From NCBI GenBank assembly GCA_037379345.1, contig CM074511.1:49792862-49856861 (forward strand): a stretch of DNA of 64,000 bases, written 5' to 3'. Position numbers and translations under genes: made by a program. Origin of the DNA: Perna viridis. Lineage: Eukaryota. Shown one piece after another: positions 3,201-64,000 of this stretch. Numbering within the stretch: the first letter of the stretch is position 1; every line of letters begins with the position of its first letter. The notes under the pieces are model-generated. The model had not been told where the DNA came from. It did not search any database and was given only the letters and a program-made list of their open reading frames with translations.

Positions 3201-6200
3201 TTGGTGATATGTTGGCATGGTTACATCAAGCTACAGCATCAGAAAAAGAACATTTACAGTCACTTCTAAAGAAAAGTTCAAGTAATTGATTTCAAATAGC
3301 TAATGTAATATCAGCAGTATTGAAACTGGACTCTGTAGAAATACAAATTTATGAACGGATCAATGATATTCTTTTAGCTATTACTGCTTTTTTTAAGGGG
3401 GGAGAGGGGCAATTGTGAAGAAATAATGAATATTATATAAAATGCCCCATGTATAGTATCATTCTTTTAGTTCCTACTCCTTGTATTGAATAATTGAAGA
3501 AAAATTCCAGATAATTTCAGAATCAATCTTCAGATTTTCTTAGGAAGTACATTTTTACAATGGCATATATTTTTTTTCTGTAGCCAGTGATGATCAGATA
3601 CAAGAAGTATTAGGTCATATCACAGAGGGAGTATGTAGACCATTTAAAGTATGTGCATTGTATATTCTTCTTGACTTAGTGAGTCAAAGAAATTTTTGAA
3701 TTAACTTGTAGCAAATTAGAAAGATCATTAAAAAAGATGAGTTTGTTCGCATATAATCCATGTTTCTATAAGTTTTGTTTTAATATGGATTTATTTTTTT
3801 TCTCCTTTTTTAACTGCAATTATTTTCAGAAATTAGAATTTTATTAATAAACATGTGATTCTGTAAGATGATCCATAAGTTGCTTGGAAGTTACAATGTA
3901 GTTGATTATTTCAGGTAAGGGTAGAACAAGTACTTGTATCAGAACAGGATGCTGTGACTTTGTATAAACTACACAATCTACTCAAGTTCTATCATAATAC
4001 TATTGGGTAGGTACAACATGAACATTTCTGTAAGTTTAACATTTCATACCTTTTTGTTTATATTTTAACAATATATTTCTAACCCATATTTTGTTATATT
4101 GTATGATTGGTGTTTTGATTATAAGTGATATTACATAGATGTCTATTGAAGTTCAAGAACAACATCCCTTTTCTATTTTTAATGACAGATTGAAAAACTG
4201 ATGTTTAGGTCTTCTGTGTTTAACAGTCAGGAAACATATATTTATGCCTTTGTAATCTGTATCTTTTTATAATTTGGTTTTCTTTCTCTTTTTCTTATAC
4301 TGTCTTGCAACTTTGAATGCTCAAATTGTACAGGTTTGTGTTGAAGAAGTTATCATTCATGATGTTTACCATCAGTATACGATGATAAAGCTATAAATGT
4401 ATTGAACTACCTGTATATGTATTAAGATTTGGGAAAAAATCATTATACATGTACAGGAGTACATAGAAAATATATTTGTTTTCTTTATATTTCATTTCCT
4501 ATTATACATGTAGTCAAATAATCATCCAAGATGCAGCTCTGCTGTCCACAATCACAGAAATACAAGATCTCAGTCATAGGATGTTTTTCAACAGTCTGAA
4601 TTGTCACGGTAATAAGTTATTGGACAAAGTAGAACTCCCTCCTCCAGACCTTGGACCCACAGCCTCTTTAAATCAGACATTGCAGTTATTAAAGGACATA
4701 CTGGCTTGCCATGATGCCTCTGTTGTAGATTATGATAATAAGAAACAAGATTTTAAACAGGTGAGCTTACTTTATGTATTTATATATTAGTCTGGGTATT
4801 GATTATAATACAATTTTTCTTAATCTGTTAAGAAAACTATTGATTGGTAAAAAAAAAAAAAAAAAAAAAACTTAATATTTTTAGTTCATAAACAGTGAAC
4901 TGTGTCTGTAAAAAAATTGTGGATTAAGGATTTCATTTGATTATTTTTTGTTGCAAAAATGGACAATTTTATTTTTCAATAATGTAAATTCCTAATCCCA
5001 GAATATACCATAATATATGTACATTTGTATATATGCATATGGATGATAAGTCTATTTTTTGGTGGGGGTCAGGTTAATAATTTGCAAGTTATATTTTTGC
5101 CAACCTGACTTCTACTACAAATATAGAAAATTAAATCACATTATTAGCTCACCTGGCCAAATGCCATGTGAGCTATTGCCATCACTTGGGGTCGGTCGTC
5201 GTCCGTTGTCATCGTTAACAATTATACAAAACTCTTCTCCTCTGAAACTACTTGACTAATTAGAACCAGACTTGGTATGAATGTTCCTTGGGGTATCATT
5301 CATAGAACTGCAGTGGGGATTTTTGATTCGTCAAAAAACATGGCCGCCGTTACTAAAAATAGAACATAGGGGTCAGACAGTAGTTTTTCACATATATCTC
5401 CTAAACCGTTAGGTATTTTTAATGATATTTCTTTCAAAAATCTTCTCCTCTGACCCTACTTGACCAATTAAAACCAAACTTGGTATGAATGTTCCTTGGG
5501 GTATACTGCATAGAACTGATAGTGGTGGGGATTTTTGATTCGTTGAAAAATATGGCCGCCGTTACTGAAAATAGAGCATAGGGGTCAGACAGTAGTTTTT
5601 CACATATGTCCTAAACCGTTAGGTTTAGCTGATATCGAATAAAAGTGTTCAGCATGGTGAGATCTATCTGCAGTCAAATTTTCATTTTAATCTATTAAGC
5701 CATGTTGGAGCTATTGCCCTTTTTCAACGATTTTTGCTATTTTTAATGTTATTTCTTTCAAAAATCTTCTCCTCTGACACTGCTTGACCAACTAAAACCA
5801 AACTTGTTATGAATGTTCCTTGGGGTGTACTGCATAGAAACGATGTGGGCATTTTTAGTTCGTCGAAAAACAGTAGTTTTTCACATATATCTCCAAAACA
5901 GTTAGGTTTATCCACATTCTTTCAATAGCTGAAATGATCCATATGATTAGGACTACAAAAGTCTTTAGACTCCTTGTAAGAGTTATTGCCCTTGAAAGGG
6001 GAAAAATAACTTTTTTAAAATAGTTTTCAGTCAATATCTTGAAAACTATGATAGATTAAAAGAAACTTTCAATTGTTGAAAAGATCTTGTAATAGTCCTA
6101 CCAAAGACTTCTTGAGTCAAAATTGTTGGACAACTTCTTGTTTAATTTATTGCCTTTGAAAGACAAAATTCAATAAGGTGAGCGATTCAGGCTCCTGGGA

Positions 6201-9200
6201 GCCTCTGGTAATGTTATATCAGGTGACTAGGGTTTCTGGTTAAAATTGCATTTTACCAATAGCAACTTACTTTTAAGCTCAAATCTTGATTTATCTCTAG
6301 AACATGATTTTCAATTTTATAAGAATTCAAAATTACTATTTGAGATAATCATACTAAAAATTAACTTTTGTGGGAGAAAAAAACTGGTTGTTCAAAAATT
6401 GTATGGTGATGTACTTCTTTGTCATTGAAGCATAGAAACACATATTTATGATTGTAGATTTTAAACAGTATAGTAGATCCATTGGTACAGATGTGTTCTG
6501 TGTCAGCTAGTCGACTGAATACATCTGACATGGCTGCCTATATGATAAACTGCATATACTTAATACAGAATAATCTGGCTTTGTATGAGTTCACAGATAC
6601 CAGATTAGAGATGTTACAAGCACAGGTAGGATATAAGGGTCACAACAAAATTACTCTAATCCAATACATAATTAAGTCAAGTCCAAAATAAATCTGACAA
6701 AATTGATATTACATCACCGGAGTAGCTGGTACTGCAATGGTCCTGATTTGGTACAGGCATTTCAAACAAAATGGTGGATTAAATATAGGTTTTACAGTGC
6801 GCCATTGTAGCATGAATATACCAGTGGTAAAGGTTCTGTTAAATCTAGGTTTTACAGCGCACCATTGCAGCATGAATATACCAGTGGTAAAGGTTCTGTA
6901 TAAATATAGGTTTTACAGTGCGCCATTGCAGCATGAATATACCAGTGGTAAAGGTAACAAAGTTCTCTAAAAAACCAAAAAATAGCATCATGTTCTCATT
7001 TTCAGGTTGATGCCCAAGTAGACACCCTAGTTAGCGAGCAGGCATCATTTGTACTCAACAGAGTGGGATTAGCTAATATTTATGCCTCAGTTCAACAACA
7101 TCAACCAAAACAGGTGAGATATTATCATACCCCCACTCAGAAAAGTGGGGGTTATATTGCAATCACATTTTCTGTCCATCTGTCAGTTAGTTTGCCCATC
7201 TGTTACACTTTTCATTACAAATTTCTCAGATTCTATTGGAAGGAATACTAAATTATTTGGTATATTACTTCCTGTTTACTGATCGACTTAGTAAATCTAC
7301 AAAGTGGTACATAATGGAAATTTTTTAACAGATTTCTCAGTTTCTCAGATATTTGGTATATTGCTTTTGCATGAAGACTTGTACTGTGTCTGGTTCCTCG
7401 TTCATCTACTTCATGTTTCCTATAGATGGTTTAGCAGTGGTATTCTTAGCACAATGTAGTGTGCAACATCTTGTTTTGATAATTCAGTCAGTATTGACCT
7501 TCAATCAGTTTACTCATCAAACCAAAAGTATCTTTGAAGAACTTACATGATACATTTATAGTGTATTTTGAAAATTAGAGGATGTTCAATGGATGACAAG
7601 GTAAGTGTGTTATCAATTACAGAAGAATAAACTGGGTTTGTAAAAGACTGTAAATTCAGACTTTTTTTAGGTTAGCAGATTTACCAACACCTGTAGTAAT
7701 TTATGTAGTAACGTTTTTGTGTTCATGAGATTTATTATGCTACTTTAGTAAACATATGAGAAGCATATCAAGTGAACATAAAGACCTGCCATAAATCTGA
7801 ATTGATAGTGGAAAGTTTTTGAGCTTATGATTGACTCTTTGCTGGTCCTTTCGTTCATAGACGTGACTGAAAACTGATGAAGATTTGTTACATTGAGTTG
7901 ATTATGACTTCTGACCATGTTGAACTGGAATAGCCCAGGGTAAATTCCAGTTTTACTAAATGAATTTATCTATTATTAACAATGGAGCTTAAACTCTGTG
8001 GTCATTTAGATAAATACATTCACTCATGCAGTTAAACTGCTGTAGGAGAAATTTTTGTTCATATGGGAAAATGTACCTGTTAGGAGTTTCAGTAGGTGAC
8101 CACTGGAGTGTGATAGACTAAAAAACCTCCTGTACTAGTGATAACAATATTCTGTTTTCCCATTTTTTAAATTTCTCTAGAAGTGTATATAGGCATGTAG
8201 GAAAATAAGTCATGTCTCAGTCTGGATAATGCGACCAAAAGTTGCAATTTTTTGTCATTTTTATGTTATAAAAGAAGTGCTTAGTGGTTTTTTTTCCATA
8301 TTAACTAATGCACATTTCCAAAATTTTTGTATTTTATCATTCATTTCAGTAAATTTGATGAGAAATTAGTCCAAGTCTTTTTATAATTTTAGTATGAACA
8401 TGTCCACTAGTAAAATTATACAAAAATCATTTGTTACATTGAGTTGATTATGACTTCTGACCATGTTGAACTGGAATAGCCCAGGGTAAATTCCAGTTTT
8501 ACTAAATGAATTTATCTATTATTAACAATGGAGCTTAAACTCTGTGGTCATTTAGATAAATACATTCACTCATGCAGTTAAACTGCTGTAGGAGAAATTT
8601 TTGTTCATATGGGAAAATGTACCTGTTAGGAGTTTCAGTAGGTGACCACTGGAGTGTGATAGACTAAAAAACCTCCTGTACTAGTGATAACAATATTCTG
8701 TTTTCCCATTTTTTAAATTTCTCTAGAAGTGTATATAGGCATGTAGGAAAATAAGTCATGTCTCAGTCTGGATAATGCGACCAAAAGTTGCAATTTTTTG
8801 TCATTTTTATGTTATAAAAGAAGTGCTTAGTGGTTTTTTTTCCATATTAACTAATGCACATTTCCAAAATTTTTGTATTTTATCATTCATTTCAGTAAAT
8901 TTGATGAGAAATTAGTCCAAGTCTTTTTATAATTTTAGTATGAACATGTCCACTAGTAAAATTATACAAAAATCATTCTCCAACAATTCAGTCAATGTTA
9001 TACTGCTTTATCCCAAAGTTATAAAGAATTTTAAGTTGAAAACTAGTCTTTTTTCCTGTAGGTAAAAAAATAGCTTATTCTGTAGGTAAAAATCTCCTAC
9101 CTTTTAGGTGAAAATCTACTTGGATGAAGGTGTTAATTTAAATGACCACAGAGTTTAAGCTCCATTGTTACAAATTCAATAGATGAATTCTGTTGTAAAC

Positions 9201-53298: not shown

Positions 53299-53494
53299 TT
53301 GTCTATTGATTCATTGGTTAATGATCACCTGGTTACTTAAGGTATAATTGTCTATTGATTCAATGGTTAATGATAACCTGGTTACTTAAGGTATAATTGT
53401 CTATTGATTCAATGGTTAATGATAACCTGGTTACTTAAGGTATAATTGTCTATTGATTCAGTATTTAATGATAACCTGGTTACTTAAGGTATAA
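53299..53494. repeat. 49-bp tandem repeat x4 in the presumed STK31 3' UTR
   Basis: Unit TTGTCTATTGATTCAATGGTTAATGATAACCTGGTTACTTAAGGTATAA at 53299, 53348, 53397, 53446. Confidence 0.92.
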
Positions 53495-56400
53495 TGTCTT
53501 GAGAGTATTTTTCATGGAGTTTGGTTCGTTGTTATTTTTGACTAGGAAGTCTAATTGTGAAGCTGTAGAGACTTGTTTCATTTCAAGTTCGTTTAACTTT
53601 TGTTGTATGAAATGTGGATACCTTGATGAGCTGTGTGAGTAAGGACATAATAATCATTTACGAATTTAATCCTTGCTAGAAAACCAACTGCATACTAAGT
53701 TTCACATAACTATGGTCACTGTTTTTTGTTTGCTTTGTTTTAACATTGAGTTGGAGCTACGAAAGTAGATACTCAAAATGGAATTGATCTCTTGTAACAA
53801 GTCCATGAAAGCCATTAGTGATGTTCCATTTAAATCTACATGAGAAGGGGATGCCATTTTTTTCTTTTTCTTTTAGTGGATGGTAAAAAATATTTTTATA
53901 TATATTGGTAGGCGGGTATGTTTAATAAATATAATTGTTTTTGTAGGAGTGAAATTTCATTTCTAAAATTCAATACACCTGGGAGTTGGGAGATTTTTAT
54001 GCTCTGATATCTCAAAATCTAGTACTACACATGCATTTTTCAACAGATTGATAATTTTTTTAAATATTTTTTTTATTCTCGGGTTGGGGGTTAGCAACAT
54101 TTTTTTTTCATATTGGGGGAGGAGGGGGGTTTCTTTTACCAGTTTCACCCCCCTCTCCTTGTAAATTTAAATGGAACAGCCCTTATATATCAGGTGACCT
54201 AAATAGCCAGGTTTTGCAGGAACTGTCAAGATCTGTTCTGTATAATAGATGCTATTTGTAGTTTCTTCTTATGTCAGTAAAAATTGATGTAAGAAGAAGG
54301 TAGAAGTAATACATTCTCTGAACATAGATCCTGTCAAGATGCTCAGTTGTTTAATTATTTTCATTTATACATGTACTTGCATTCTAATTAGAAATTCATT
54401 TTAAGGTAAAAAATCAAACCATTTCTGTGGAATTTCAACATAAACTTTCTTTTCTCCTAATTGAACCAAGGTAATTATTTTCCATTGTTTTTAAGTCACT
54501 AATAATGTGATAAGTGTCATATAATGTTAATAATCAATTTCGCTGGTACTAATTTTCATGCTTTTCAGTCCACCACGAAATTAGCGAAAAACAGTACACC
54601 TCGAAAATTAATTTGTTTACAATAAACAATTCATGTCATTTAGTGCCAGTTAGGCATTTGAGGTACTATCTGTATAATATATGTAATTTGTTTTGTGTTG
54701 AAGTTTAAATCTCAGAAGTGTGCCATTCCTACCATTATTCATGAAATTAGACATGAAAGTCATTTTTGAGTGCAGGATCATTTTCATATTGTTCATTGAT
54801 CAACTGTTCCTGGTTATATACATGATTATGAAAATAAGGAAGTATGAAGATGTTTATTGAAAACTTTTTTTGCAATTTTCACTCATTTTTAAATTAAGCT
54901 AACAGAAATGAAATTAATATTTTAAATGAAGTTTCTGTCAAATTCTGTGTTATTTTATATAAAGTGATGATATGTTGATGTGATTTATCAGAAAGGTGAT
55001 TTTTTGTTAATGATCTTATCTACTAGTCATAGTAACTACAAATTGTTTTAATACAGTCTTTGTCAATACTTGTTTGTTTTTACTTACCATATATATCGAA
55101 ACCATATTTGCCATTTCCCAAAGTCTTCACTGATAATTTCAACATTTTAAAATAGCTTCTCTGGAATGTAGCTTGACTTAAATCTAAAGAAGACAGTTGA
55201 AAATTCTCAGATATGCAGCCCATCATTGATCACTCACTGGAAGTAACTGTCATGGAAATTTCACTTGTTTTCTGTTTAGGACAGTTTGATATAATCAACT
55301 TGTGCTACGTCAGTTATATTTGGTATGCATTTCCAATAGATCACTTTAGCACAATTCTTTATTCATTTTAAGCATATGCCGTCGCAGTCAAGGTCTATTG
55401 ACTTTGAGATTTTGCCTTATTGGAACATGCCTTCGTCAGTGCTCCATATATTCACAATAAACTATATCTGAGGAATCTGTCCACTTGGGTGGTGTCAAAT
55501 TATAGTATTGACATTATAAATTGTCCATAATATATGAAATTAGTAACAATGTCAGTTGTCACTTTCACTCAAATTTTAAATATTAGCGTCCATGTGCGAC
55601 AGGGGCAACATCAACGTGATAACAGTTATCAGGTGGACTCTGAGGCATATTTTCACATACAATGGTTTTAAAAATGTCTACCACGGTGTCCAAAAATAGT
55701 CCCATCTCAAAATGTGTGTTATTGCAACCTTCCAATATCAAACAGTACAAAAACCACCTACAGATATGTGTATTATCAGTAAAAACTGGAAATGAGCTAT
55801 TTTTGTATTTTGAGAAGTATAAAGAGAAAATAGGTAACCATCTTAATTTTTTTTAGTCATTTTGAGTGTTGGTCAATAGGGCATTTCATGACTTAAGTTA
55901 GCAGGTTGGAACAGTACTGATTAAAGTCATTCAAAAGGATGAAATCTAAATGATTTGCATTTTCTCATGACATTGGCCTTTATTTTCACCAGGTAGAGGC
56001 TTATTTTGTTTTTTTCAGGAATATGAGGAGTATTCTTTTTGTATAGTAAAACTTTGGTCTCTTGACTTGAATAAAAAATTATTTAGAAAAACAAGAAGTT
56101 TTTCTTATAAAAATACTGTGAAAGTAATCTGTGGGTGCATTTTTTGTAGGTGGGCATCTAAATTAACTAAAAATTGCATTTTGATAATGTCAAAATTGCA
56201 ACTTTTTATAAACGTATAACTAGACTATTTTTTTTACCATAAACTTATCAAGAGTATTAAATTTATGACAAACAAGTGTCTTATGATACTATGTAGGTGG
56301 CAACTGATGCAGAACAAAATAATTCAGATAAATTCATTGATGGTTCCCTTGGAGACGGGTTATTAAAATGACATGGGTCTGCCTTTGTAGCAGACAAGTG

Positions 56401-57161: not shown

Positions 57162-60100
57162 ATGAAGTTCACATGTAAGTAACAGATGTAATAGCTTGTA
57201 AAATTGAGGACTGGTTCAAACAGTGGTTAAATTGTCTCTGGCGTGACTTCCCCGCCTCCATAAAGCATGAAGTTGATTTAAAAATATTTAACTCTTCTTG
57301 ACAAATGAGATTGATTGATTGATTGATTGTTGGGGTTTAACGTCCGAGCAGCAATATTTCAGCTATATTCAGACGATGAACATGAAATGATGATGTAATG
57401 AAAAAAAAACAAAGGGATGGGACACAAGGATAATGGGGTCGACAAATTTTGATTGCCACTGAAAAAAGGAGAGATGGGTAAGGTAGGACAATTTAGCCTC
57501 CTGTGGCGGAGGGCAAATGTTCCTACTCCTATCGAATACCACAGCAGGGTTCTTTAACGTGCAAGGAATGTGGCATCTTTCCCAACACGGTGCACCACTA
57601 TGGTTTGCGGTCAGGTTTTCCGTATTATAGCCTGACAACCCCAGCATGTAACACGCCAGGGGTACCCCCATTCCACCACCGGGAGCACACATCCCAATTG
57701 CTCTGTGGGCAGAGCGCCTAGCCCCAGGCTATGTTTCTGAACACTACGTAGTCGCCTTTTACGACCAGCTTAGCGCTGCTGCAGGCCTATTCTTTTAACA
57801 CCCGGACGTGCACGGGGCTAAATAACTACACATATTAAGCATCTACATCTACATTGGCGACAATGTCTATGGATATTTAGAGAACTCATACAAGACGGCT
57901 AATTCTGTGAGCTAAGTTGATTTTATAACTACACATATTAAGCATCTACATCTACACTGGCGGCAATGTCAATGGATATTTAGAGAACTCATACAAGACG
58001 GCTAATTCTGTGAGCTAAGTTGATTTTATAACTACACATATTAAGCATCTACATCTACATTGGCGGCAATGTCAATGGATATTTAGAGAACTCATACAAG
58101 ACGGCTAATTCTGTGAGCTAAGTTGATTTTATAACTACAAATATTAAGCATCTACATCTACATTGGCGACAATGTCAATGGATATTTATAGAACTCATAC
58201 AAGACGGCTAATTCTGTGAGCTAAGTTGATTATACATAATTTTTTTTAGATTTCCTTATCTTTTTTATCGAGGTGGAAATATGTATGTATAATACTATGT
58301 TTTTAAGTTCTTCGTTCTAAAAATTGTGATACCAATAGTTCTTAAAATATATATTACAAATCGAAAAAGGAATTACTTAATTTCTAGACTGACCACTATA
58401 CAAGAAAGCATTTCTTAAAAAATTTCTAGTTTTTTTTTTTTTTTTAAGAATAGCTGTTATATTGTTTTTGACCCGTCCGTCTGTCCGTCAGTCCGTCCGT
58501 CAGTCCATCATCAGTTTTACGGACTTTTCTTCTAAATGCTTGCAGATATTGACATGATTTTTGGTATATAAGTTCACCATGATAAGTTACAGGTCAAGTT
58601 TAACTTTCGTTCAGCTTCGATGATTTTTACCGAAATTACGGGCCTTGAACTTAGCAAAATTAACAGAAAAAAGTTTTCCGGGCATTTTTTTCTAAACGCT
58701 TGCAGATATTGACATGATTTTAGTACAGAAATTCACCATAAAAAGTTACAGGTCAAGTTCGACTTTCGTTCCGCTCCTGATGGTTTTTACCAAAATCACG
58801 GGTCTTTAACTTAGCAAATTCACAGAAATTTTTTTTTCTGAACGCTTGCAGATATTGACATAATTTTTGGTATATAAACTCACCATGATAAGTTACAGGT
58901 CAAGTTTACGTTTTGTCCCGCTCTGATGGTTTTTACCGAAATTACGGGCCTTTAACTTAGCAAAATTCACAGAAATAACAGTTTTCCGGACTTTTTTCGA
59001 AACGCTTGTAGATATTTACATGATTTTGGTATATAAGTTCACCATGATATGTTACAGGTCAAGTTTACGTTTCGTTCCGCTCTGATGATTTTAACCGAAA
59101 TTACGGGCCTTGAACTTAGCAAAATTCACAGAAAAAAAAGTTTTCGGGACTTTTTTTTTCTAAACGCTTGCAGATATTGACATGATTTTTAGTATAGAAA
59201 TTCAACATGATAAGTTACAGGACAAGTTCGTAGTTGTTCCACTCCAACGATTTTTACCAAAATTACGGGTCTTGAACTTAGCTAAATTTACAGAAATAAC
59301 CGTTTATCGGACTTTGGTATATAAGTTCACCATGATAGGTTACAGGTCAAGTGTACGATTTGTTCCGCTACGATGATATTTACTTTGGATTAACTAAAAC
59401 TCAAAGAAATCACAGTCTGGAGTTTGAAACTACCATTCTGAGTAACAGAATTTAGTTAGAAGATGAAGGTCTAAAGCCAAAAAACACTCTTATTCCTTTT
59501 TATTGGGGTCCTTCTACATGTTTTTCTCCTACAAATTTATTTGATTATCTAACATGGGGACGCGTGGGTATGTGAGCGCCCACTAATTAAGGTTCTTTAA
59601 TTATGGACAATTTTCACGTTTAGCCGCTGGCCTTGAATGTTTTTCGTGTAGTGGAGTAGAAGATGCTAGAGAATGTAATCATCGCATTCAGTGTGCAGAT
59701 GGTGAGGTATATATTCCATATAGCAGGGAGTTAAACTTCATCTAGTATTACATCTACAGAGTCACTAGTACATTGGTTATGATACAGGAGTAACAAAACA
59801 AAAAACAACGGTTTTTACTTAGTCAAAGGAAATGAAGGTGGTAATTTGACAGACCTAATAAGATTTGAATTAATCGTGAAGTCTAATAAAATACTGTCTA
59901 TGTCGGCTTCTAGTTCAAATGGTTCAAGTCAACATCAACAGAATTAAACATGAATATGACTAAATATGTCAAAGTACAAAAAAACAAAAATAAATCAACC
60001 AAGTGACATATTGATTAAAAAAAACCGTAAGCTTGACCAGACATGTATATCTATTACAGCCATGTCATTGGTATTCATACTACCTTCTCCATAAAAGCCT

Positions 60101-61064
60101 TATTTTTCCAGGTTTGTTACATGCACAACTATGTTACAGAATCAGGAGCAGTGTTGTTTGATTACGGTTGTGGATCACCTCAGGTTGGCTCTCATTTTTG
60201 CAAAGTGATAAATTTGGTTCCGTTGGTTACTCTGTCACGTCCTTTTCCTTTGGAACGAGAATAAAAGACATGCAGTGACGCACCTAGAGGGGGTAGCTAG
60301 GGGGGTGTGGCACCCCTTTTTCATTTAAAAAAAATGTCATTTACATGTGTGAAATTGACCAAAAATGGCAGTTAATAACCTAGCACACCCTTTTCTCTGA
60401 GGAACCGCGACTGGCATTACTCCTTTTTTCAAAGTGTCTGTATCCGGCCTTGACATGACTGAATATTTAGATAAGTTAAATATACAAGTATTGGCATTTT
60501 CATCGATCAACCAGGCCACACAGATAACTTCACATACTACATACTGAGTATAAACTATTCTTTCTTTTTTCTCAGGGATGCAGTAAAACAATCATTGGTC
60601 CGATATTTGGTCGGAGAGATGAGGGACATCACGTCAAATGTACAGTATGTTGCAGCGGAAGATTGTGTAACGAATTGCTGAACTGTTCAAGTCCACAACA
60701 GAGTGAGTCGAAAAAAAATATGCCAGTTGAATTTACTGTGTTCATTGAGTCGAAAGGTACAAGGTAGTCGATAATTGATGTCAATGTTTTGTTTATTTCT
60801 ATCTCAACTTGTTTATCAAGTTAACTGTTTTATTAAATGAACACATAGAATTGTTTTATAAAGTCAATAAAAGATTTGGTCTTGTCAGTTTTGAAGCTTG
60901 ACAATGGACATAAAATTAAAATTACAGCTTCACCTGACCTACCTAGAGAATGTGCCGATTTGAAAATAATCAAAAGCGGAGTTTATAATATTTATCCATA
61001 TGGAAAGTCAGTTCCTGCAGTTCCTGTTTTCTGCGAGGTCGACTCTGCCATGCATATTTGGACG
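57162..61064 (+). CDS. Secreted Ly6/uPAR (three-finger)-like domain + fibrinogen-related domain protein, 5' part; remaining FReD exons not found in the window
   Basis: Exons 57162-57174, 58250-58282, 59624-59706, 60112-60183, 60576-60702, 60928-61064 join in frame: MKFTYFLIFFIEVEISAGLECFSCSGVEDARECNHRIQCADGEVCYMHNYVTESGAVLFDYGCGSPQGCSKTIIGPIFGRRDEGHHVKCTVCCSGRLCNELLNCSSPQQTSPDLPRECADLKIIKSGVYNIYPYGKSVPAVPVFCEVDSAMHIWT. LECxxC...CCxxxLCN is the LU pattern, and PRECxDL..SGVYxI..VFCE..WT is the start of a fibrinogen C-terminal domain. The first two micro-exons are less certain. Confidence 0.78.
57309..57817 (-). mobile_element. SINE-like retroposon copy 5
   Basis: Reverse-complement homology to copy 1; the tail reads (GATT)n on the + strand; no clear TSD. 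Confidence 0.9.
57822..58232. repeat. 103-bp tandem repeat x4
   Basis: Units starting ATAACTACA at 57822, 57925, 58028, 58131. Confidence 0.92.
58465..59598 (+). mobile_element. HINE-like element with ~160-bp internal satellite (about 5.5 units)
   Basis: (GTCC)n-like microsatellite at 58474-58506; unit marker GCTTG(C/T)AGATATT at 58538, 58698, 58844, 59004, 59166; 3' hairpin GTGGG...CCCAC. Confidence 0.7.
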
Positions 61065-62292
61065 GTAAAAACCTTCAATTTTCTGCGAAATATTTTGATA
61101 GAAAAAAAATATTACAATTGTCAAATGCCACCATATAATTAACTATGCCAGCTTAAATTGACAGAGGACAATTGGGCAGATATTAATGTTGCCATAAGAT
61201 ATTTTCTAATGAATTGATTGTGTACAGTAAGAATGTTCTAGTACTCATGGTCTCAGTATCGTATTAATTTTCCCATGGACTTCTATAGTGAAGTGCATAT
61301 TTTTAGGATTTTTTAAAAAAATATGTAAATTGATTCAATAAAACTTTCACTTATGTAGCATTTCTAAGGACATGTGAAAAAATAATTTCCTGCAAAGAAA
61401 ATAGGGTGAGTCCACGAAGATCGGACAGAAAAGTAGTCTCGAACTGTAAATAGCCATTTTCCCTACTTTCACTTTCGTTTTGCACTCACCAAACCAACCT
61501 TTTCAGTGGAACATTTTTATGATATTATGTTAGATTTTCTTTTAAAAAAGTTCTTCATCTTACAGTGTGATGTTTGCTCTATTTTATAAGTCATTGTTCA
61601 TATCCTTTGACAAAATATTAGTTTGTAGAGAGGCAAAAAGAAAATGCACTATATTTTTATAGCATCCATGTTTTGACGTACACCTGCTCAGGGATATGCA
61701 ATACGATACTGGTACCTCATGATGTACATGGCATAGTACATTATCATTTAGAATCATATTTTACTTTTTTTATTTTATTTTATATACTCTCAAGAACATG
61801 ATAAACACCTTCCAAAATGCACTCTTAACCATGAAAATGCATTCAATTATTCTGTACATCTGTATGCATTTTATCATACTGAGAAACCAAATTCATACTT
61901 AGCAGGGGAACACTTCCTAAGGTGTCCATTTATGCAAGTTCAACACATATCAAACTTCTGTCACATCTTTTCCATCATTTTACTGACAACACCTCCGTGT
62001 AAGTTTCATGGAATTAAAAAAAATACATGTAGTAAAAACATGTACATGTATACGTGAATCTTATCTTAATGTACATTCGTATCTTACAAGTTAACAAGAA
62101 GGTGAGTGTATATAGTCAAAACCTATAACGTCTTTGTAAACGCAAACACATGAAGTTAATAAATCATTAAAATAACCACATTTAAACTAAGTAAAACATC
62201 AGTAAAAAAATATTTACATAAACACAATATTCAATAATAAAAAACATAAAACATAATTTGGCAATCTGGTGCTACTCGTATCAGAAATCAGA

Positions 62293-62759
62293 ATCTGGGG
62301 GAGCACAGCAGATACATGTACATGAAAGATGTAAAAAATGAAAACACAAGTGAGCTAAAAAATGAAAGAAAACAAAAGTACATTGTATCTGGGGGTATCC
62401 CGGCAGATACTGTATAAATTTTGTCTAATCTTAGTACCTGAGGGAGCCCAGCAGGCACACCTACATCCTAAATCTTAGTGTCTGGGGGGAGCCCAGCAGA
62501 CACACCTACAACCTTATCTCAGTACCTGGGGGAGCCCAGCAGGCACGCCTACATCCTAAATCTTAGTGTCTGGGGGAGCCCAGCAGACACGCCTACAACC
62601 TTATCTTAGTACCTGGGCGGAGCCCGGCAGGCACACCTACTGACGTTTGGAAGCTGTGGACTAGATATCTGAGGGGAGCCCGGTAGATGCCACAATGATT
62701 CTAACCATTGAAAAAACTTTAAGGAAGTAAAAGATAACCTGGGGGAGCACAGCAGGTTA
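62293..62759. repeat. Array of nine stem-loops with conserved loop GGGGAGC(A/C)C(A/G)G and variable, covarying stems
   Basis: Stems ATCTG/CAGAT, GTATCTG/CAGATAC, CCTG/CAGG (x3), GTGTCTG/CAGACAC (x2), ATCTG/TAGAT, TAACCTG/CAGGTTA. Confidence 0.8.
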
Positions 62760-62801
62760 ACAACATAAAAGCATTTGTGCAATCTGAATTGGGGATTAAA
62801 T

Positions 62802-63619
62802 CAGGGGCGTAGCTGCCTATACGCAAATACGCAGTTGCTTACTTTCGGAAAAATTAACAAAAAATAAAAACACACATTTTAAAGATGAAATAAAGGTTAT
62901 TTATCACATATGCATACCATGAACGTAGTATAGGCTCTGAAAAACTGGCTCCAAAATCGTTAAAATTCAGGAGGGCTTTGTTTGTTTGTTTGTTTGTTTG
63001 TTTGTTTGTTGGGATTTAACGTCCGAGCAGCAATATTTCAGCTATATTCAGACGATGAACATGAAATTGATGATAAAATGAACTAGAAATGATGATGAAA
63101 TGAAAAAGGGATGGGACACAAGGACAATGGGGGGTCGATAAATTTTGATTGCCACTGGAAATAGGGAGAGGTGGGTAGGGTCGGGCAATTTAGCCTCCTG
63201 TGGCGGAGCCCTATGGTTCCTACTCCGGGAGAATACCACAGTAAGGTTCTTTAATGTGCGAGGAACGTGGCATTTTTCCCAACACGGTGCACCACTATGG
63301 TTTGCGGTCAGGTTTTCTGTATTATAGCCTGACAACCCCAGCATGTAACACGCCAGGGGTACCCCATTCCACCACCTGGGGCACACATCCCAGTTGCTCT
63401 GTGGGCAGAGCGCCCTAGCCCCCGGCTAGGGTTCTGAGCACTATTTAGTCGGCTTTTACGACAAGCTTAGCGCTGCTGCGGGCCTATTCTTTTAACGCCC
63501 GGACCTGCACGGGTTCTTAGGGCTTTGCCTTGCCGGACTCACTGGGGGCCTTGAGCAACCCCCCAAGACCCCTCGCCGTAATTTTGCGTACAACTAAAAC
63601 AGGCCTAGCTACGCCCCTG
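62802..63619. mobile_element. MITE (same family as 19308-19518) carrying SINE copy 6
   Basis: TIRs CAGGGGCGTAGCT / AGCTACGCCCCTG; shares the subterminal GACCCC..GCCGTAATTTTGC. Confidence 0.8.
62981..63513 (-). mobile_element. SINE-like retroposon copy 6, nested in a MITE
   Basis: Reverse-complement homology; (TTTG)n tail on the + strand; TSD AGGGCTTTG at 62972-62980 and 63519-63527, with 5 extra nt at the element 5' end. Confidence 0.92.
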
Positions 63620-64000
63620 AAAATTCCAGAAAAATGGAATTGAAAACGTCAAATTGAGTATAACGAGCAGTCAAATTTTCTGGTAATAATAAATTATACG
63701 GTAAAATACGATGCACACTGCGACCCAAGTTGCTTGCTTCGAAGGCATAATAAAACTGCTACGTGATTTCCGTAACACATGCCATGAATAGATGCACAAA
63801 ATGAAAGTAAAACAACGGCTATTGAAGTCCAATAAATATGAAGTTTGGAAAGCTACATTCCATCAAGTGGAATTCACTGAAATTTGTTTGGGGTCCAGCT
63901 GCCTCAGCCTAAAAAATCCATGACATCATGCGTAGGTCATGTGACTTGTGCATGTCTATCTAAAATAACTGTGAAGTTAGGGGAACGAGGAAGGGGAGAA

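Follow-up and report, generated by a model that had tools for sequence, protein, structure and literature searches.

Ngaro retrotransposons are tyrosine-recombinase (YR) elements with the layout A1-ORFs-B1-A2-B2 and without a methyltransferase (PMC9210276). The element described here shares with the Xenopus element DIRS-53_XT (PMC9210276) and the Cafeteria Ngaro (PMC8547959) the order of gag, RT/RNase H and YR, the absence of a methyltransferase match, and A and B parts with a B-A junction. The B repeat of DIRS-53_XT is 152 bp in length (PMC9210276), whereas the one described here is about 1 kb and carries a structured array. Ngaro elements have been noted in bivalves at low copy (PMC10294476).

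Other relatives are more distant. The PAT-like superfamily has split direct repeats plus a methylase (PMC7192593). DIRS-1 of Dictyostelium, likewise a YR retrotransposon, passes through a single-stranded cDNA intermediate; its primer is not known, and a 3′ RNA hairpin has been proposed for this role (PMC7192593). DIRS-1 also has inverted terminal repeats, an ICR and a methylase (PMC7192593), none of which was seen in the present element. SIRE of the Trypanosoma element VIPER is an A2-spacer-B2 piece (PMC6681497), as are the short copies described below; SIRE/VIPER belong to a different superfamily, and the available text of PMC6681497 mentions no structured array.

A search of the YR-retrotransposon literature, with Repbase, supplements and the founding Ngaro papers outside its scope, gave no description of such an array or of its enclosing frame and, among the 15 papers listed, no mention of a pseudoknot, and the available parts of PMC11071296 and PMC12440569 contain nothing on such an array. 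The array and its frame make up a clade-wide folded cis element, apparently undescribed, in a known superfamily. Repeated stem-loops that act as a multivalent protein platform are familiar from the GGAG loops of retroviral psi, the caulimovirus leader and the bacterial CsrB arrays. The likeness to these is in the way of working only: GGAG is here antisense to the open reading frames, and no Rfam match at gathering score was obtained in window positions 61500-64000 or in 14 loci (best score UCA1, 21.6 bits against a gathering score of 80).

A Ngaro-type copy in a host intron

The window, that is the whole 64,000-nt stretch analysed, holds the following features near its right end.

60928..61064 (+), host FReD exon upstream of the element-bearing intron (translation and splice dinucleotides)
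61779..64000 (-), Ngaro-type retrotransposon copy, internally deleted (sharp shared ends, unrelated flanks)
61779..62256 (-), B repeat, 3′ portion, closed by a short inverted-repeat arm
62257..62278 (-), 3′ arm of the array-enclosing long-range helix and half of a crossing 6-bp pairing
62293..62759 (-), hairpin array of nine units (tandem, pattern, stem-pairing and folding analyses)
62295-62311, 62389-62406, 62438-62454, hairpin units 1-3 (fuzzy pattern search)
62482-62499, 62526-62542, 62570-62586, hairpin units 4-6 (fuzzy pattern search)
62613-62630, 62669-62686, 62739-62755, hairpin units 7-9 (fuzzy pattern search)
62785..62800 (-), first part of a small conserved hairpin close to the B boundary (empty-site comparison)
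62801..63620 (no strand), nested MITE, a later insertion with 14-bp perfect terminal inverted repeats
63621..63667 (-), remaining B boundary and, in truncated form, the 5′ helix arm
63666..64000 (-), element 5′ leader and A repeat; A is about 165 bp and extends past the window end

The ORF-sense 3′ end of the copy is at 61779, and its 5′ end lies 34 bp past the window, at window-equivalent 64034. Among 20 loci the left end is shared in 18 and the right end in 12, and the flanks are unrelated. The inverted-repeat arm that closes B has its partner about 20 nt inside the opposite end of the element. The copy is 2.2 kb in length and is an antisense insertion in an intron of the FReD gene, the next exon of which is at window-equivalent 64472-64568; a preliminary description had put the hairpins downstream of the last identified FReD exon, and with this further exon the region is intronic. 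The hairpins are not a host feature. The same description had named Lin28 among the proteins that bind GGAG; neither a host Lin28-type protein nor a link to the host gene is supported here. Its suggestion of the subterminal array of an unknown mobile element is supported as to the place in a mobile element; the element is of a known type.

The array stands behind the recombinase stop, about 500 nt from the 3′ end of the element, and is inside the B repeat. In the window copy gag, RT, RNase H and YR were lost at a deletion breakpoint near 63666, the crossing 6-bp pairing has decayed, and the small hairpin at the B boundary, which by eye has similar counterparts in other families, is split by the nested MITE. 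RNA reads span the MITE-free (empty) site of other copies. The MITE itself contains a second common repeat (about 62977-63515) with a GTTT microsatellite, which is plentiful in RNA reads. With its ORFs deleted, the module (the array and its frame) split by the MITE and one arm lost, the window copy is a dead relic.

Longer copies of the same family (family A), about 4.2-5.8 kb, retain ORF remnants on the window minus strand: a gag-like ORF with a CCHC knuckle, RT, an RNase H-like segment and the C-terminal part of a tyrosine recombinase. The RT (Pfam RVT_1, E 2.4e-5) and the knuckle (PF21890, E 1.1e-4) are both below curated cut-offs; intact relatives match RVT_1 and Phage_integrase above cut-off. 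The combination of gag-like ORF, RT/RNase H and tyrosine recombinase, a feature of the DIRS order, is thus present as remnants in family A and intact in relatives. Mussels, oysters and scallops are the sources of the named RT relatives, and the host is probably a bivalve. In L035 the YR comes directly after RNase H. The RT/RNase H ORFs of L045 and L105 have no methyltransferase (Dam) or other methylase match of the PAT-like kind, self-alignments show none of the inverted terminal repeats or ICR of DIRS-like elements, and no SGNH ORF was seen in the element family. Judged by these sequence features, the element is a Ngaro-type tyrosine-recombinase retrotransposon.

The hairpin array

When both strands of the whole 64-kb window were searched with a fuzzy pattern, nine matches came up, all within the array. 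The units have G-rich loops of 11-12 nt that run from CTG to CAG, with TAG closing unit 8. The middle of the array is a tandem with periods of 44 (4.9 copies, 82% matches) and 88 (2.4 copies, 92%), and the number of its units varies among copies. On the element mRNA strand the loops read CUCC, and GGAG is the window plus strand, i.e. the antisense or cDNA reading; this orientation is constant across all units. Exact copies of the 17-nt core number 90 in the genome, where the reversed control has 0. When the genome was searched with the array, 74 candidates came up, and the 40 that were scored contained 53 matches. The pattern also occurs 21 times among viral contigs, none of these being a relative.

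Stem pairing was counted in 92 units with an intact core, drawn from 37 of 41 loci; these units are copies and not independent events. The four positions outside CTG/CAG are Watson-Crick in 76, 54, 83 and 73 units, against shuffled means of 43, 43, 57 and 53. Stem positions 5-7 in the same units are at background (11, 8 and 9 paired, shuffled 10.5, 16.6 and 14.6). When units are collapsed to seven distinct stems, a step that partly merges unit classes, 24 of 28 positions are Watson-Crick, a value reached by 4 of 5040 permutations (p about 0.001). Single units fold as RNA at -2 to -15 kcal/mol on either strand.

The nine hairpins and the covariation of their stems had both been proposed in the preliminary description, and both are borne out over the span 62293..62759. 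The higher-order tandem it had seen in the middle is also present, with a computed period of 44/88 bp in place of ~43/86. The small loop variants it had listed as features of the array are another matter: by eye, those of units 1, 2 and 9 are mostly decay of the window copy.

Long and short copies

Genomic copies are almost always split into either long (A-ORFs-B) or short (A-spacer-B) units, and self-alignments of the long copies show no split repeats. In families A, C, D and i there are short copies of 0.9-1.4 kb, each running from the A end through a C-rich tract and a spacer into B. Canonical Ngaro elements show the same C-rich tract after A2. The short copies are the A2-spacer-B2 portion of a Ngaro element, and the array therefore lies in a B repeat about 1 kb long. 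Replication as single-junction circles, in a clade that lacks split repeats, had been considered and was dropped, as the short copies are A2-spacer-B2 units.

The C-rich tract lies just 3′ of A2 in L096, L097, L098, L129, L130, L136 and L142, and the same tract follows A2 in L106, L111, L084, L068, L081, L183 and L186. It accompanies elements with the module and elements that lack it, and no such tract follows A1 in the leaders examined. Its position is that of the primer-binding site in an LTR element.

The B-A junction is kept in L024, L084, L106 and L111, and B1-A2-spacer-start of B2 can be read in L106 and L111, both short-read contigs. In the genome the junction pattern was found at one place for family A, one for family i and none for family C; for comparison, family A has 11 spacer loci and family i has 28 matches to its 3′ end. 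Families A, C and i yielded no complete A1-ORFs-B1-A2-B2 copy, the tally of long, short and complete copies for family i leaving out 13 loci (L215-L227). Metagenome contigs that look circular do not demonstrate free circles, because split repeats may be collapsed in assembly. One family i short copy, L068 (near 24.344 Mb), has lost most of its 3′ region and has retained the module and the terminal inverted-repeat arm.

A conserved frame around variable units

The RT remnant has 149 matches in the genome. The loci compared were 40 of these 149 RT places with their flanks, 20 further family A/B places and nine anchor matches. In seven families (A, that of the window copy, and B, C, D, E, F and i) the same pair of mutually pairing anchors flanks a repeat array, and an extra 6-bp pairing crosses the covarying helix that the anchors form. 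Position and frame are common to families whose RTs are about 45-55% identical, and they are kept across hosts. In a metagenome scan (80 of 523 loci kept) the frame was found, among the loci listed, in L104, L105, L106, L107/L108, L111 and L117; the junction of L103 is the same as that of L104, some modules add a further helix around the array, and the units of L117 are nearly equal to those of the window. Some rows, L177-L181 among them, are not part of these comparisons.

An RT group of 37 rows (SH-aLRT 100) holds all seven module families, and canonical split-repeat families without anchors fall outside it, in a tree that is a midpoint-rooted quick search of 47 rows from this genome's elements only, with no named reference or outgroup and with L028 dropped for zero coverage. 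Within the clade, no anchors were found in L058, L083, L086, L087 and L088, and L055 has a single one. Two near-intact copies, L045 and L053, have lost part of the module.

The units inside the frame differ by family. A shared loop motif, in the antisense reading only, is found in families A, B, C, D and F and in L117 (6 of 12 modules), and the other families have different loops or none with this motif. In family i, by eye, a whole stem-loop is inserted inside the loop motif, and this suits a folded site better than a linear one.

Across 11 modules the mean pairing energy is -27.3 kcal/mol for cognate arms; for non-cognate arms it is -21.1 on the antisense and -22.4 on the sense strand. The permutation p is about 2-3e-5, a value that overstates independence because the families are kin. 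The 5′ arm of the enclosing helix is outside B. In families A, C, D and i the same B arm pairs both with the YR-side arm and with an arm of unrelated sequence in the spacer, and in 8 of 8 cases none of 300 shuffles reaches the observed energy. The supply of the outer arm a second time, by unrelated sequence, is the strongest sign that the fold matters and points to selection on the fold. The spacer arm could have originated by fold-back copying. The earlier proposal of selection on a folded, multivalent site is supported.

A family B module, amplified to 11 + 5 units, is found inside a family A copy at the recombinase end (L025, oriented positions 5920-7400). In more distant metagenome elements (L109, L119, L110, L118, L120 and L134) the place behind the recombinase is taken by other arrays, of repeats or of hairpins, and the anchors are partial or absent.

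Possible function and working strand

We propose that the array, as part of a Ngaro-type B repeat, is a putative multivalent loading site for zinc-finger Gag and RT, likely folding on the element's own sense RNA and serving in packaging and in priming or strand transfer; we put the chances of this proposal at about even. On the sense RNA the array and the enclosing helix would fold into a platform in vivo, the element's own Gag and RT would load on it, and the site would single out the RNA to be packaged and to undergo priming or B1/B2 strand transfer. A candidate cognate ligand exists, since Gag ORFs end in a CCHC-CCCH-CCHC cluster; CCHC/CCCH motifs are present in 32 of 34 loci scanned, module-less families included, so that the cluster is not confined to module families, and the presence of zinc fingers in split-repeat families without anchors counts against the proposal, as do the clade members with no anchors or a single one and the near-intact copies with an incomplete module.

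For RNA choice, packaging and priming in the DIRS order, the module would be a defined, mutable candidate signal: many families offer natural compensatory variants of it, and a zinc-finger Gag matched to it comes with the element.

Several comparisons bear on the working strand. Duplex energy is lower on the sense strand in 10 and on the antisense strand in 6 of 18 comparisons (two spacer rows left out), and the z value is lower on the sense strand in 7 of 11 modules (eight shuffles each). Non-Watson-Crick stem positions read as G-U on the sense strand in 52 cases against 11, these not being independent. An unbiased wobble scan gave 7 G-U and 8 A-C, both at background, interior G-U counts are 5 against 3, and by eye some variants of the crossing pairing are compatible with the antisense strand alone. 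Taken together, the comparisons show at most a weak lean to the sense strand.

In two RNA runs, reads over the element are sparse and from both strands, at a summed depth of about 2-25 in each direction; neither a start peak, an end peak nor a discrete transcript is seen. Host exon reads suggest that the library is stranded. Of the 30 reads across the MITE-free site, 29 are in the element sense direction, and a family i copy has 77 and 60 reads, most of them sense. The preliminary description had named two outcomes that would speak against it. One was indeed found, as the region is the sub-terminus of a transposable element without a discrete transcript; the other, loss of stem pairing, was not, the pairing being preserved in homologues.

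The main rival is that single-stranded minus-strand cDNA is the working molecule, with loops of the GGAG/AGAG type bound by Gag knuckles or the recombinase, or with the array as an origin of second-strand synthesis. We consider this possible but rather unlikely. What makes it the main rival is that the purine loops are on that strand, and that DIRS-1 makes single-stranded antisense cDNA (PMC7192593) and has no known primer. The purine-rich loop motif has 3-6 matches in 6 of 12 modules in antisense and 0 in sense, and the helices, in which nearly all pairs are Watson-Crick, fold on either strand. Retroviral knuckles prefer purine-rich loops, which are here a property of the antisense strand. 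The earlier notion of GGAG as a ligand of CCHC knuckles gains from the finding that the element encodes knuckles of its own, but GGAG is opposite to the ORF strand, so that such binding would need an antisense strand or minus-strand cDNA. The end junction, too, is a folded inverted repeat with an inner hairpin. Against a role of the cDNA are the lean to the sense strand, the energies of the unit hairpins under DNA parameters, only -1 to -8 kcal/mol, and the fact that the DIRS-1 result comes from a different superfamily.

The junction itself is a 9-16-bp inverted repeat around a spacer of 20-26 nt that forms a small hairpin (L104:5035-5090, L107:5551-5600, L084 near 6930, L024). A spacer of this length exceeds what is usual for a duplex YR site and may point to a folded substrate.

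Other explanations

The absence of complete copies has an ordinary explanation in recombination after insertion between direct repeats of 1 kb, and split repeats have also been lost from Xenopus Ngaro copies (PMC9210276). A bolder alternative is resolution by the recombinase, or a split genome. In a split-genome retrotransposon the recombinase would resolve a two-junction circle into long and short units that integrate separately, both would keep the array for co-packaging of their RNAs, and the short RNA would supply in trans the terminal redundancy, and perhaps the fold-back primer, missing from the long RNA. We regard this scheme as speculative and unlikely.

As to the array, the units might be dyad-symmetric sites in double-stranded DNA, either recombinase arm sites or transcription-factor sites, the stems being incidental. 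Arrays of arm-type sites do have a constant core with AT-rich spacers near a terminus, the arrangement seen here, and the repeats of family m2 are without an obvious hairpin. Yet stem letters change while pairing persists, a helix is inserted into the family i motif, and an enclosing helix of 400-700 nt with a second arm would be meaningless in double-stranded DNA. This explanation is quite improbable.

Little probability can likewise be given to a neutral origin, by slippage together with template switching that perfects short inverted repeats during copying. Slippage fits the middle units, a 44/88-bp array of variable copy number, and of the two outer arms, spacer and YR-side, the one in the spacer is complementary to a higher degree, which is what fold-back copying would produce. 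On the other hand, all units have one loop orientation, the stems end 4 bp beyond CTG/CAG, and position and frame have been kept across families and hosts in spite of the divergence of their RTs.

The ends of Helentrons and HINEs are asymmetric subterminal inverted repeats with a hairpin. A non-autonomous Helentron-type element with a captured retrotransposon, or a regulatory RNA element of FReD, is hardly credible here: the ends of the element do have an asymmetric short inverted repeat, a small hairpin and no evident target duplication, and the copy does lie in a host intron, but each family's ends go with its own ORFs, the end-to-end junctions and A/B repeat layouts match Ngaro, and there are dozens of dispersed copies and no discrete transcript. 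A Helentron/HINE identity had been considered and was dropped, as long copies code for gag, RT and YR instead of a RepHel protein in the remnants identified. The resemblance is nevertheless a warning for annotation, because short copies look like Helentron relics by their ends.

Further repeats

Other tandem arrays in the window are at 57822-58231, 58513-59315, 53299-53499 and 6779-6955, with periods of 103, about 159/306, 49 and 60, respectively. A family i member, L082, has three 510-bp repeats (RT-sense 1051-1557, 5336-5848 and 5956-6453) with an 816-aa ORF behind them, and these are probably a nested LTR element.
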